Shown here: positions 21,026 to 64,000 of the stretch, one piece after another
Layout of the letters: every line of letters begins with the position of its first letter
Numbering within the stretch: the stretch's first letter is position 1
From: Pseudomonadota bacterium
Lineage (GTDB): Bacteria > Pseudomonadota > Alphaproteobacteria > SHVZ01
Length of the DNA stretch: 64,000 bases
Assembly: GCA_016195085.1 (NCBI GenBank)
Contig: JACQAG010000054.1
Coordinates: forward strand, 7,045 to 71,044
Reading direction: 5' to 3'
Program-made: the position numbers and the translations under genes
Notes under the pieces: generated by a model
The model's input: only the letters and a program-made list of their open reading frames with translations
What the model was told of the DNA's origin: nothing
Database searches by the model: none

Positions 21026-23443
21026 ATGGGGCGAGGGCAGCGACCGGCGACAGGGCCGGCGAGACGCAGGGCGGCTGAAGCTTTGCAGCGCGGCATGGCG
21101 GCGCACAGCGCCGGCCAGTTCGCGGCTGCCGCGGCGCTCTACCGGGCCGTCCTCGATGTCGATCCGCGCCATGCGGATGCGCTCAGGCTCTTCGGTCTCA
21201 CCTGCTTTCAAACCGGCCAGACGGCGACGGCCATCGAATGGCTGAGCAAAGCCGTGCGGGAGGCGCCCACCACCTCCCAGTACCGGACCGACCTTGCCTT
21301 GGTGCAGATGTCCGCCGGGCGGCTCGAGGAGGCCACGCGCATGCTCGCGGCCGCCCTGGCGCTGGCGCCGGAGAGCCCCGAAGCATGGTTCAACCGGGCG
21401 ATGCTGGCGGAGGGGGCGAAGCGCCGCGACGAGGCAATGGCGCTGTTTCGCCGCGCTACATGGACCCGTCCCGAAATGGCCGAGGCCCATGCCGCGCTGG
21501 GCACGCTCCTGGTGGCGCGGGGAAACACGAAAGCCGCGGTCGGGCCGCTCTCCCAGGCGATTGCCCTCGATCCGGAACTGTCCGAGGCGCGCTTGAAGCT
21601 CGGCGGCGCCCTGCAGGAGTTGGGCCGGCAAGAAGAGGCTCTCGCCTACTATGCCGGCGGGTGCGCGGCGCAGCCCGAGGTCGTCGAGTTCCACAACAAC
21701 CGGGGCAACGTGCTCCTGGCCTTGGGGCGGGCCGAAGAGGCGGCAGGCGCATACCGCGTCGGGCTCGCGTTCCGACCGGATCTGGGCGAGACCTTCAACA
21801 ATCTCGGCAACGCCGTCATTGCCGGGCCGCATCGAGACGAAGCCGGTCCCTTCTACCGGCGGGCGGTGCTGTTGCGACCGAACCTCGCCGAGGCCTTGAG
21901 CGGGCTCGGACGCTGGCTGGTCGACCGTGAAGCCCATGAGGAGGCGATCCAGCGCTTTCGCCAAGCGCTCGCGATCGAGCGCGAGCGGCCGGAATATCTG
22001 AGCAATCTCGGCAGCGTGTTGCGCACCGTTGGCCAGCTCGACGAGGCGCTGCGCTTGTTTCGCCACGCGCTGGCCTTGGCTCCCGGGAATCCGGAAGGCC
22101 ACAACAACATGGCGAGCGCCACGCTCACCCTCGGCGATGCCGATGACGCCATTCGCAACTATCGCCGCACGCTGGCGATTGCGCCTGCCGTGCTCGACGT
22201 GTGCCGCAATCTGCTGACCGCGACCTTGTATTCGACCGCGGTCTTGCCGGCCGCAGCCTTTGCCGAGCACCGGCGGTTTGCGGAGCTGTTTCGGCCCAAA
22301 GAAGCGCCCACGCCGCTGCCGGCTCGAGCCCGCGAGCCGGAGAAGCGCTTGCGCATCGGCTACCTCTCCTCCGACTTCCGCCATCACCCGATCGCACGCA
22401 ACACCTGGCCTTGGCTCACCGAGCGCGATCGGACCCACTTCGAGGTGGTGTGCTTCGCCGAGGTGCACAAACCCGATCACGTGACCGAGCAGCTGAAGCC
22501 GCTGGTGGATGGCTGGATATCGATCATCGGCCGCAGCGATGCGGAGGTGGCCGCCGAAGTGCGCCGCGCCGGGATCGACATCCTGATCATTCTGGCGGGG
22601 CATTTCGACCGCAACCGGCCCTTGGTCGCCACCTACCGTCCGGCGCCGATCACGGCGAGCGCCCATGACGGAGCGACCAGCGGGCTCGAGGAGATGGATT
22701 ACCTCTTGGCAGACCCGATCGTCTGTCCGCGGCATGGACGCGAGGGCTTCACCGAACGGGTGGTGCGCTTGCCGCTCATCTCGCTGCAGCGACCCATCGA
22801 CGGGGCGCCCTCGATGGAGCCGCCGCCGGTGCTGCGCACGGGCGCCATCACCTTCGGATCCTTCAACAACCCGGCGAAGGTAACGCCGGCCACCGTCGAG
22901 CTATGGGCGGGCGTGCTGCACGCGGTGCCGGGCTCACGCATAGTGCTCAAATACCGCAACGTGTTCGGAGCGGCAGCGGCCCGACAACGCCTGCAGGCGA
23001 TGTTCGCCCGGCGCGGCATTCCTGCCGAGCGATTGGTGATGGCGGCGGCGAGCGGCACGGCGGATCCGGTGCTGCATCACTTGGCGCTCTACCACCATGT
23101 CGACATCGCTCTCGACACGTTTCCGTTCAACGGTTCGACGACGACGTTCGAGGCGTTGTGGATGGGCTTGCCGGTGGTCACGCTCATGGGCGAGACCATG
23201 ATGGCGCGTTGGGCGGGCTCGATGCTGGCCCATGTCGGCAGGCGAGAGTGGGCGGCGGAGACGGCCGCAGACTATGTCCGCATCGCTGGCGCGCTCGCCG
23301 GTGATCGCGACCGGCTCGTCCGCGAGCGTCAGGCGCTCCGTAGCGATGTGGCGCGTTCGCCCTTGTGCGACGCGCCACGCGCCATGCGGCATCTCGAGCG
23401 GACGTACAGGGCCTTGTGGCGGCGCTGGTGCGCCGCCGCCTAG
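21026..23443 (+). CDS. TPR-repeat + GT41 (OGT/SPINDLY-like) protein glycosyltransferase, FlmG-like (paralog 1)
   Basis: 805 aa. N-terminal TPR repeats (AxxHxAGRLxEAExLYRxVL...PxHADALxLxG). C-terminal shared motifs [47 protein letters not shown]. Start could be downstream. Confidence 0.8.
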   Translation: [805 protein letters not shown]

Positions 23444-23452
23444 GCCCTATTG

Positions 23453-62538: not shown

Positions 62539-64000
62539 CCTCGATCATGCAGCGAGGACTGGATGAGCACCGCGCCGGCCGCCTTGCCCAGGCGGAGAGC
62601 TGTTATCGAGAAGCGCTGGCCGGCGATCCCGACAATCCCGACGCGCTGCATCTCCTCGGCGTCATCGAGCTCGATCGCGGCAACATCGAAGCGGCACTTG
62701 GCCTGATCGGCCGCGCGGTCGAGCGCGACGATCGGCGCGGAGAGTTCCGCGTCAATCTCGCCAATGCCCTGCAGGCGGCCGGGCGGCGGGCCGACGCGCT
62801 CGTCCAATATCGACGCGCGATCCAGCTGATGCCGCTCTCCCCGGAAGCCCGCAACAACATGGGCGCGGCATTGCTGGCAGGGGGCGACTTCACCCAGGCC
62901 GTCGCCAGCCTGAAATCGGCGATCGCCATCCGGCGCGACTATGGCGAGGCGCACTACAATCTGGGCACGGCGCTTGGCAACCTCGACCGATACCAGGCGG
63001 CGCTGGCGGAGTTTCGGATCGCGCTGGCGCTGCTCCCCGCCCATGCCGGCGCCTGGACCAATCTCGGCTTCGCCTGCCACAATCTAGGCGATGCACCGAC
63101 GGCGGTCGCCTGCATCGGTCGCGCCGTTCGGCTCCGCCCGGACCATCCTGGAACCCGCACGAATCTCATCAGCGCCATGCGTCTGGTCGATGGGATCGGT
63201 CCCGGCGAGGAGCTGGCGGAGTGCACGGAATTCGGCAGGCGCTTCGGCGCTCCGCTGGCAGGGGCGCTGCCTGAGCTGGGGCGCGATCGCAATCCGGACC
63301 GTCGATTGCGGGTGGGCTATGTCGCCGCCGACGGGTTTCGCCTGCACACCGCGTCCGTCAGCATCTTGCCGCTGATGGAAGCCCAGGAGCGGCAAGGTTT
63401 CGAGTTGTTCTGCTATTCCGATGTCACCACCGCCAAGGAAGACGGGGTGACGGCACGGTATCGCGCCTGCGCATCGGAGTACCGGATGACGGCGGGGCTC
63501 GACGATCACGCCTTGGCCGAGCGAATTCGCGGCGACGCTATCGACGTGCTCGTGGACGTCATCGGCTATCCAAGCGGCTCGCGGCTGTTGGCTTTGGCGC
63601 GGCGGCCGGCGCCGGTGCAGGTGAACTTGCTCTTGATGGGCAGCTTCGGGCTGCCGGCGGTGGGGTGGGCGATCAGCGATGAGATATTGACGCCTGCCGG
63701 CAGTGAGCGGTGGTTCGTCGAGCGCCTCTACAGGCTGCCGTTCGGCTTTTGCTACGACCCGTTGGTTCCGACGCCCGCGGTCGCCCCGGCGCCGAGCACC
63801 GGCGGGGCAGGGATCGTGTTCGGGAGCATGAACCAGCCGGCCAAGCTGTCGCCGTCGACGATCGCGGCATGGAGCGAGATATTGCGGCGTGTTCCGGATG
63901 CGCGGCTGCTGTTGAGAGGCCGGGCCTATGGAGATCCGGCAATCGCCGAACGGTTGCGCGGCGTCTTCGAGCAGCACGGCGTCCAACGCCAACGGCTCGA
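62535..64000 (+). CDS. TPR + GT41 FlmG-like glycosyltransferase (paralog 12), 3'-truncated by window edge
   Basis: GTG 62535 (GTGA overlap) or ATG 62547. TPRs (AESCYREALAGDPDNPDALHLLG...), RRLRVGYVAADGF, IVFGSMNQPAKLS. Runs off the window end. Confidence 0.75.
   Translation, partial: MTSIMQRGLDEHRAGRLAQAESCYREALAGDPDNPDALHLLGVIELDRGNIEAALGLIGRAVERDDRRGEFRVNLANALQAAGRRADALVQYRRAIQLMPLSPEARNNMGAALLAGGDFTQAVASLKSAIAIRRDYGEAHYNLGTALGNLDRYQAALAEFRIALALLPAHAGAWTNLGFACHNLGDAPTAVACIGRAVRLRPDHPGTRTNLISAMRLVDGIGPGEELAECTEFGRRFGAPLAGALPELGRDRNPDRRLRVGYVAADGFRLHTASVSILPLMEAQERQGFELFCYSDVTTAKEDGVTARYRACASEYRMTAGLDDHALAERIRGDAIDVLVDVIGYPSGSRLLALARRPAPVQVNLLLMGSFGLPAVGWAISDEILTPAGSERWFVERLYRLPFGFCYDPLVPTPAVAPAPSTGGAGIVFGSMNQPAKLSPSTIAAWSEILRRVPDARLLLRGRAYGDPAIAERLRGVFEQHGVQRQRL

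Follow-up and report, generated by a model that had tools for sequence, protein, structure and literature searches.

What does a bacterium do with more than a dozen diverged copies of one glycosyltransferase gene lodged among its flagellar genes? We addressed this question in a 64,000-nt stretch of DNA from an uncultured alphaproteobacterium (contig JACQAG010000054.1, assembly GCA_016195085.1; hereafter the window), in which twelve open reading frames (ORFs), G01 to G12, encode proteins with N-terminal tetratricopeptide repeats (TPR) and a C-terminal glycosyltransferase domain of family GT41. Our results suggest that the region is a flagellum-linked protein-glycosylation island whose paralogs, at least 14 in number (12 in the window), are anciently diverged enzymes of the SPINDLY/OGT type. 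Flagellar protein glycosylation with GDP-activated deoxysugars is the best-supported mechanism, and we consider it fairly probable.

A cluster of TPR-GT41 paralogs

Since the GC-content of the window is about 67%, coding frames were picked by GC-content at third positions (GC3), and the genes were annotated with Pfam and NCBIfam. The Pfam domain Glyco_transf_41 (PF13844; gathering cut-off of 25 bits) was matched above gathering by all twelve window ORFs and by G13, a copy located past the window end that was also scored (64–205 bits; E between 1e-17 and 2e-60 for the window ORFs); G14 was taken from precomputed Pfam matches. Several TPR families scored above cut-off in the N-terminal part of 11 of the 12 ORFs, and G10 presented weak TPR_8 and TPR_2 matches only, below cut-off. 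These results confirm the preliminary description of twelve ORFs combining TPR with an OGT-like GT-B domain, and the C-terminal domain of each ORF does match the GT41 model. The TPR regions are approximately 260 to 440 residues long. All copies are intact ORFs with high GC3, and a rough Kyte-Doolittle check revealed no N-terminal hydrophobic segment in any paralog: the maxima (1.2–2.0) fall in Ala/Leu-rich helices rather than at the N-termini.

The paralogs are distributed from 21 kb to the end of the window. G01 (21026–23443, plus strand, likely start 21095; PF13844 E = 5e-39) lies between fliF and flgE, 9 nt from flgE and divergent from fliF. It is followed by flgE-flgD-fliK, a gene for a B12-binding radical S-adenosylmethionine (SAM) enzyme and a gene for a short-chain dehydrogenase/reductase (SDR). 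A plus-strand series comes next: G02 (30961–32928; E = 7e-36), G03 (32901–35291; E = 1e-17), a GT4-type (GT-B, group 1) glycosyltransferase (35326–36543; Pfam Glyco_trans_1_4 and Glycos_transf_1), G04 (36477–38498, likely start 36540, overlapping the GT4 stop; E = 3e-39), an FkbM-family methyltransferase, G05 (39549–41426; E = 9e-43), G06 (41423–43600, start overlapping the G05 stop; E = 3e-39), G07 (43573–45792; E = 5e-35) and G08 (45789–47981, start overlapping the G07 stop; E = 3e-36). After G08, we found the convergent G09 (47965–49881, minus strand; E = 3e-36), a second SDR gene and a minus-strand sugar operon of which G10 (58403–60511; E = 2e-60) is the first gene, separated by a 71-nt gap from the E1-alpha gene. 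G11 (60574–62538, plus strand; E = 2e-46) is divergently oriented from G10, and G12 (62547–64000, plus strand; E = 3e-21 on the partial ORF) runs off the end of the window. For G06, G08 and G11, the longest ORF begins too far upstream, and alignment places the true start against the stop codon of the gene before. Neighbors overlap at their start and stop codons, or lie at most 50 nt apart, throughout G02-G03-GT4-G04 and FkbM-G05-G06-G07-G08. As most neighbors are joined by such overlaps or very short gaps, the arrangement indicates a few long operons.

The count of twelve copies is correct for positions 21026–64000, but the cluster itself is larger. The window is 99.99% identical to a contig from a metagenome-assembled genome (MAG) at NCBI (JACOSK010000068.1, GCA_016178915.1), which runs beyond the window end through the remainder of G12, followed by G13 and G14, and stops about 0.8 kb past G14; this assembly is fragmented. 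The number of copies in the cluster is accordingly 14 or more. The complete G12 (623 aa), G13 (620 aa) and G14 (758 aa) are found on public contig L005 (labels of this form denote the contigs and loci that we compared).

The paralogs resemble SPINDLY and OGT

G04 aligns with Arabidopsis SPINDLY (SPY; PDB 7y4i, 8dtf), a GT41 protein O-fucosyltransferase, across both the TPRs and the catalytic domain (E = 6e-99 to 7y4i), and this is its closest solved relative. It also matches the OGT proteins of Thermobaculum (E = 2e-80), human (E = 1e-64) and Xanthomonas (E = 1e-25). We mapped the active site of SPY, as described in PMC9715652, onto 13 paralogs. The histidine (SPY H495/OGT H498) and the diphosphate-binding lysine (SPY K665/OGT K842) are invariant in 13 out of 13, and the position of SPY Y744 is Phe or Tyr in all of them. 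This position was proposed to set donor size and is a cysteine (C917) in the GlcNAc-using human OGT (PMC9715652), which argues against a GlcNAc donor: the paralogs are probably not GlcNAc transferases. They share the family and the fold of OGT by sequence, as well as an OGT-like 'H-P' motif after the conserved histidine, but a UDP-GlcNAc-specific context is absent from their locus. The likeness to SPY is not complete either. The aromatic residue expected of a SPINDLY-type site at Y744 is present, but SPY S496 is lost and the base-stacking H728 is His in 5, Gln in 7 and Phe in 1 of the 13 sequences. Unlike SPY, the paralogs are bacterial, linked to flagellar genes and present as 14 diverged copies in one locus. 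Overall, the donor-pocket residues fall into at least five patterns. The paralogs thus appear to be intact, soluble protein glycosyltransferases of the SPINDLY/OGT type with differing donor pockets.

G03, a divergent GT41 with features of the HMW1C/ApNGT cytoplasmic N-glycosyltransferases (NGT), carries Gly-His-Thr in place of the Ser-Thr-Thr loop, and it is the sole paralog whose best specific NCBIfam match is the HMW1C/ApNGT model (NGTferase; E = 5e-18, far below cut-off). HMW1C and ApNGT are GT41 enzymes without TPR, whereas G03 carries TPRs and no adhesin or two-partner-secretion genes are found near it. Its ortholog is kept in L006, L007 and L009.

The paralogs are not FlmG homologs

The twelve paralogs had been read as flagellin O-glycosyltransferases of the FlmG family, the type known from Caulobacter. 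The coarse architecture does agree with this: FlmG is soluble and flagellum-linked, its published description comprises a TPR and a GT-B domain only, and its TPR domain binds flagellin (PMC7591256). We fetched a FlmG ortholog via primer NK-74, given in the supplement of the eLife paper on FlmG, which has an exact match in metagenome contig L004. This ortholog (L004:1692–3488, minus strand, 598 aa), flanked by a cytidylyltransferase and a GNAT protein, presents TPR matches but no PF13844 match. Its similarity to G04 in BLASTP is limited to the TPRs, and its profile-profile comparison with the alignment of 13 paralogs (hhalign) yielded a probability of 0.17%. No solved relative of its C-terminal domain was found by sequence; the FlmG catalytic domain carries a motif resembling GT9. 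Two FlmG C-terminal domains used as phmmer queries found nothing in the window; in other fetched loci, they retrieved over 20 homologs, located next to GT41 genes. Indeed, L029 contains three flagellin genes, then a true FlmG homolog (34% identity; E = 1e-67), then two separate TPR-GT41 genes. Because a real FlmG homolog stands there beside separate GT41 genes, FlmG and GT41 are two distinct families.

The donors also differ. FlmG is a flagellin pseudaminyl/legionaminyl transferase that uses CMP-pseudaminic or CMP-legionaminic acid, whereas Pfam revealed no NeuB and no CTP_transf_3 or other CMP-transferase among the window ORFs; the FlmG locus L004 does have a cytidylyltransferase. FlmG is, in addition, a single-copy gene in Caulobacter. 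Membership of the FlmG family is thus refuted, and we give it next to no chance. FlmG and the paralogs share a layout, and perhaps a logic, rather than a family. We adopted this logic as a working model for the paralogs, in which the TPR picks the acceptor and the glycosyltransferase domain picks the donor.

FlmG-type C-terminal domains were also observed in tandem beside TPR-GT41 genes in L041, L042, L063, L014 and L027, including Planctomycetota; L041 alone possesses four genes of the FlmG-like and two of the GT41 type. The two unrelated families of TPR-glycosyltransferases thus seem widely combined in mixed arrays.

Divergence and conservation of the paralogs

We compared all the C-terminal domains with each other. 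Their identity ranges from 22% to 63%, far from any near-identity, and that of the TPR regions from 18% to 43%. The paralogs form a core of G04, G05, G07 and G08 (57–63%), joined by G06 and G11 and then by G01 and G09; G02 and G12 form a separate pair (54% identity between catalytic domains), and G03 and G10 are two outliers. The preliminary description credited eleven copies with near-identical motif sets, which is overstated: the motif [IV]TFGS[CF]NN..K is exact in 7 of 12 copies, SPLCDA in 4 and a third, longer motif in 1, so that the statement fits about seven copies. G10 had been singled out as the only divergent copy. It does diverge (30–34% identity to the other paralogs), but G03 is equally aberrant (26–31%).

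The copies are conserved one by one in other species. A scan of a genome collection yielded at least 600 matching stretches, of which 79 loci were kept; the species of the window is not among the best 80 loci. In three alphaproteobacterial MAGs (L006, L007 and L009), the genes radical SAM-SDR-G02-G03-GT4-G04-FkbM-G05-G06 are collinear with the window, the GT4 gene included, and the best match of each gene is its positional counterpart. The collinearity of L006 extends through G08 to G09 and the second SDR gene. Most positional counterparts present 43–60% protein identity. Since each gene finds its positional counterpart as best match, the paralogs are anciently diverged and individually conserved across species.

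These observations bear on another explanation, namely that the repeats arose through faulty assembly or through a recent amplification yielding functionally redundant copies. The window does come from a metagenome-assembled genome, in which repeats can be mis-assembled. However, the copies share only 22–63% identity and are intact, each has a positional ortholog in other species, and part of the sequence was also recovered in Logan assemblies of two sequencing runs, such that independent assemblies agree at 99.99–100%. The levels of identity and the orthology lead us to reject this explanation, whose probability we regard as negligible.

Linkage of the array to flagellar genes

The preliminary description placed the array among fliF, fliK-flgD-flgE and a GT4 gene, next to a dedicated sugar operon, and Pfam located each of these where it had been described. 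Upstream of G01, the minus strand encodes flhG, flhF, flhA, a sigma-54 activator, motA, fliN, fliH, fliG and fliF (10540–20645; Pfam CbiA/ParA, SRP54, FHIPEP, Sigma54_activat, MotA_ExbB, FliMN_C, FliH, FliG_N/M/C and YscJ_FliF). The hook operon fliK-flgD-flgE occupies 23453–27602 on the same strand (Pfam Flg_hook; FlgD and FlgD_ig; FlgE_D2 and Flg_bbr_C). Glycosyltransferase and sugar genes are therefore physically linked to flagellar genes, as in a flagellar glycosylation island, and the window lacks lipid-carrier or export machinery.

This linkage is conserved. A JGI metagenome contig (L086) repeats the full order flhG-flhF-flhA-activator-motA-fliN-fliH-fliG-fliF-G01-flgE-flgD-fliK-radical SAM-SDR-G02, and a contig of an NCBI genome (L085), which begins at a contig end, presents the same order from fliG onward. 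The G01 orthologs occupy the same slot in both and are 53–54% identical to G01. Across the window, L085 and L086, FliG is 91% identical, FlhA 75%, FliF 72% and FlgE 65%. Other loci display related arrangements: GT41 arrays stand next to flagellin genes in L029 and L011, L052 has flgD-flgE-GT41, L073 has fliI-fliG-fliF-GT41, and in L013 fliI precedes two GT41 genes.

The GT41 orthologs of L085 and L086 are 50–54% identical to those of the window, against 65–91% for FliG, FlhA, FliF, the radical SAM enzyme and FlgE, which indicates a clearly higher rate of evolution in the transferases than in the flagellar core. The two relatives also carry a small DUF1153/helix-turn-helix gene between fliF and the G01 ortholog (L085 2355–2639; L086 9556–9879). 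The window has an AT-rich spacer of 380–450 nt at that position, with no DUF1153/helix-turn-helix homolog. In L011, a TPR fused to a class-I methyltransferase (7784–9046, minus strand) lies between a four-gene GT41 operon and the flagellin gene, which points to TPR modules serving repeatedly as adaptors for modifying enzymes of different kinds. The third GT41 of L011 was considered as a G14 ortholog, with flagellin just past the contig end, and was dropped: the TPR-only G14 fragment gave no specific best match.

A predicted supply of tailored deoxysugars

The minus-strand operon downstream of G10 (51297–58460) encodes, by Pfam, an E1-alpha and an E1-beta subunit dependent on thiamine diphosphate (ThDP), a pyridoxal-phosphate (PLP) enzyme of the RfbH/DegT type, an SDR, an Fcl-like SDR, a guanylyltransferase-like protein and a GHMP kinase. 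Against the GDP-L-fucose synthase model, the SDR at 53076–54029 reaches 460 bits (cut-off of 500; E = 5e-138) and is a near-equivalog of Fcl. The nucleotidyltransferase is similar to mannose-1-phosphate guanylyltransferase (E = 1e-43), and the GHMP kinase to both the heptose kinase HddA (E = 9e-42) and fucokinase (E = 2e-29). For the PLP enzyme, the nearest model is RfbH (E = 1e-78), which acts as a 3-dehydrase in dideoxyhexose pathways. The E1 subunits match the alpha and beta models of pyruvate dehydrogenase E1, likewise below the NCBIfam cut-offs. Pathways that attach two-carbon branches to deoxysugars are known to include pairs of E1 alpha and beta. No clear Gmd accompanies the Fcl-, guanylyltransferase- and fucokinase-like genes.

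Four other candidate tailoring genes lie within the array. Following the hook operon, we found a B12-binding radical SAM enzyme that resembles C-methyltransferases of the KedN5 family (27793–29811, minus strand; Pfam B12-binding and Radical_SAM; NCBIfam NF033712 E = 7e-84, below cut-off) and an SDR epimerase/reductase that is distantly Fcl-like (29921–30910, minus strand; Pfam Epimerase; NCBIfam Fcl E = 6e-47, below cut-off). The FkbM-family methyltransferase (38647–39531, plus strand; Pfam Methyltransf_21) scores above the cut-off of TIGR01444. The second distantly Fcl-like SDR, Epi49 (49926–50918, plus strand; Pfam Epimerase; NCBIfam Fcl E = 9e-43, below cut-off), has an ortholog with 87% identity in L006. 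A GDP-activated and tailored 6-deoxyhexose would fit SPINDLY-like enzymes, and what resembles a GDP-fucose-type pathway adjoins the paralogs; the donor is given here as a prediction.

Proposed function and its alternatives

Together, these features lead us to propose the following mechanism. By homology, each paralog would be a soluble cytoplasmic enzyme whose TPR superhelix (approximately 260–440 residues) holds an extended stretch of the acceptor protein, and whose GT-B domain moves one sugar from a nucleotide sugar straight to a Ser/Thr hydroxyl, without any lipid carrier. The donors would most likely be GDP-activated 6-deoxyhexoses of the fucose family and derivatives tailored by the enzymes of the island. 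The putative tool kit comprises a sugar-1-kinase, a guanylyltransferase, an Fcl-like reductase, two more Fcl-like SDRs and an RfbH/ColD-like PLP enzyme; further tailoring may come from ThDP E1 alpha/beta (a two-carbon branch), the B12-radical SAM enzyme (C-methylation) and the FkbM enzyme (O-methylation). The acceptors are most likely flagellin or other flagellar proteins destined for export, which would be modified beforehand, and the GT4 enzyme may extend a first sugar. As the TPR regions and the donor-pocket positions both vary among the paralogs, we infer a division of labor by site and by sugar.

Sugar-nucleotide operons and GT4 enzymes are also typical of polysaccharide loci, and the genes could in principle build a capsule, an O-antigen or an exopolysaccharide instead of a protein-linked glycan. 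Nevertheless, a survey of the window ORFs turned up no Wzx, Wzy, ABC exporter, initiating phosphoglycosyl transferase or chain-length regulator. The preliminary description had drawn the same conclusion from the lack of Wzx/Wzy, ABC exporter and initiating transferase, and we concur: with no lipid-carrier or export machinery in the window, direct cytoplasmic glycosylation of proteins is favored. TPR domains also point to protein acceptors, and characterized GT41 enzymes act on proteins. We therefore regard polysaccharide synthesis as very improbable.

Several observations weigh against glycosylation of flagellar proteins with GDP-deoxysugars. In the active site, SPY S496 is replaced by P, T, Q or H in all 13 paralogs, and the phosphate-binding threonine (SPY T748/OGT T921) is kept in 9 of 13, being replaced in G03, G09, G10 and G12. 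Every NCBIfam match of the sugar enzymes falls below its curated cut-off, which renders the donor assignment approximate. The preliminary description called for the flagellin genes to be located and counted: the window holds none (phmmer with two flagellin queries, E ≤ 1e-8; no Flagellin_N in the Pfam scans), and those that we located flank the related arrays of L029 and L011. A flagellar gene lies within 10 kb in only 7 of the 79 related loci with the limited set of probes that was used. Planctomycetota, Verrucomicrobiota and cyanobacteria likewise carry TPR-GT41 arrays, which reach five genes in Planctomycetota and other phyla. Finally, no experimentally characterized GT41 flagellin transferase was found in the full-text literature searched.

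Some of these points are shared with the main alternative, in which the paralogs are SPINDLY/OGT-like enzymes acting on non-flagellar proteins, either in intracellular regulation or on surface proteins such as pilins, and the flagellar neighbors reflect co-regulation or history. Eukaryotic SPY and OGT act on many nucleocytoplasmic proteins (PMC9715652), and a cyanobacterial OGT homolog is reported to be required for pilin glycosylation (bioRxiv 10.1101/2021.07.06.449578). Likewise, none of the probed flagellar genes was found within 10 kb in 72 of the 79 loci, many of which belong to taxa not known for flagella. Against this alternative, the slot of G01 between fliF and flgE and the position of the array right after the hook operon are kept in several genomes at about 50% protein identity, and flagellin genes abut related arrays. 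Moreover, a dedicated and heavily tailored deoxysugar pathway is typical of surface glycans and not of regulatory monosaccharide marks. We consider a non-flagellar role rather unlikely, and glycosylation of flagellar proteins remains our preferred interpretation.

Precedents and implications

According to Kint et al. (bioRxiv 10.1101/2022.03.25.485807), flagellin glycosyltransferases are known in two types, Maf and FlmG, each of them associated with nonulosonic acids. The array was initially presented as far beyond the one-transferase systems known so far, which overlooks two precedents. First, the flagellin glycosylation locus of Campylobacter jejuni NCTC11168 contains seven paralogous maf genes (PMC13130089), so that transferase paralogs within a locus for flagellar glycosylation do have a precedent. 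As in the window, these putative flagellin transferases are clustered with sugar-biosynthesis and flagellar genes, and the paralogs correlate with different sugars (PMC13130089). Maf is, however, an unrelated protein family using nonulosonic acids, with seven copies against at least 14 GT41 paralogs. Second, SPINDLY-family GT41 (COG3914) genes next to flagellin loci are predicted to glycosylate flagellin in enterobacterial islands: eleven distinct GT41 enzymes were reported over 14 of the 42 island types, on bioinformatic evidence only (De Maayer and Cowan 2016, PMC4875605). The hosts there are Enterobacteriaceae, and the survey describes no paralog arrays of the present kind (PMC4875605). The array is an unusually large, conserved and specialized set of paralogs, whose enzyme family and type of island are both already known.

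More tentatively, SPINDLY-type GT41 enzymes may constitute a further class of flagellin glycosyltransferases beside Maf and FlmG, using donors of the GDP-6-deoxyhexose type, with some 14 conserved paralogs writing a combinatorial, site- and sugar-specific pattern on flagellar proteins; we put this forward with some doubt. If true, flagellin glycosylation would involve an enzyme class and a chemistry different from those of Maf and FlmG, and bacterial SPINDLY homologs would gain a defined substrate in the cell. Little or no O-GlcNAc activity was noted for two bacterial GT41 proteins, TtOGT and XcOGT (PMC9715652). The 14 paralogs, with their varied TPRs and donor pockets, would constitute with their orthologs a natural panel for the choice of acceptor sites and donors by TPR-GT41 enzymes, a matter of relevance to human OGT and plant SPY as well.

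Other features of the region

The left third of the window contains formate-dehydrogenase-like genes, chpT, a ctrA-like regulator and then fliI-fliJ, which encode the flagellar export ATPase and its stalk (4880–6666, plus strand; Pfam ATP-synt_ab and T3SS_ATPase_C; FliJ). The ChpT-type histidine phosphotransferase and the CtrA-like response regulator of the OmpR family stand back to back (3372–4756) and adjoin fliI-fliJ. A search for CtrA boxes yielded a single site with one mismatch (4782–4797), which was equalled in 26 of 100 shuffles and is at chance level. The sigma-54 consensus was matched three times against 4.5 expected, each time inside a gene, and a scan of 47–64 kb for sigma-70 promoters and terminators remained at or below the level of shuffled sequences.

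Directly downstream of flhF-flhG, a 788-aa ORF (8161–10527, minus strand) presents an unusually high GC-content at second positions (0.62) and no Pfam match. It could encode a low-complexity protein of the polar-landmark type or represent a mis-called frame. A 213-aa ORF that overlaps or adjoins it (7728–8369, minus strand) has no Pfam match either. Within the radical SAM gene, 138 nt of the window (28076–28213) are absent from the otherwise 99.99%-identical NCBI contig, whose annotation breaks the gene there into products of 536 and 85 aa. Finally, the cultured Paramagnetospirillum kuznetsovii LBB-42 (L088, 10001–22574) carries a pair of neighboring TPR-GT41 genes, with a NeuB/nonulosonic-acid biosynthesis cluster a few kb away, and this strain is a possible genetic model.

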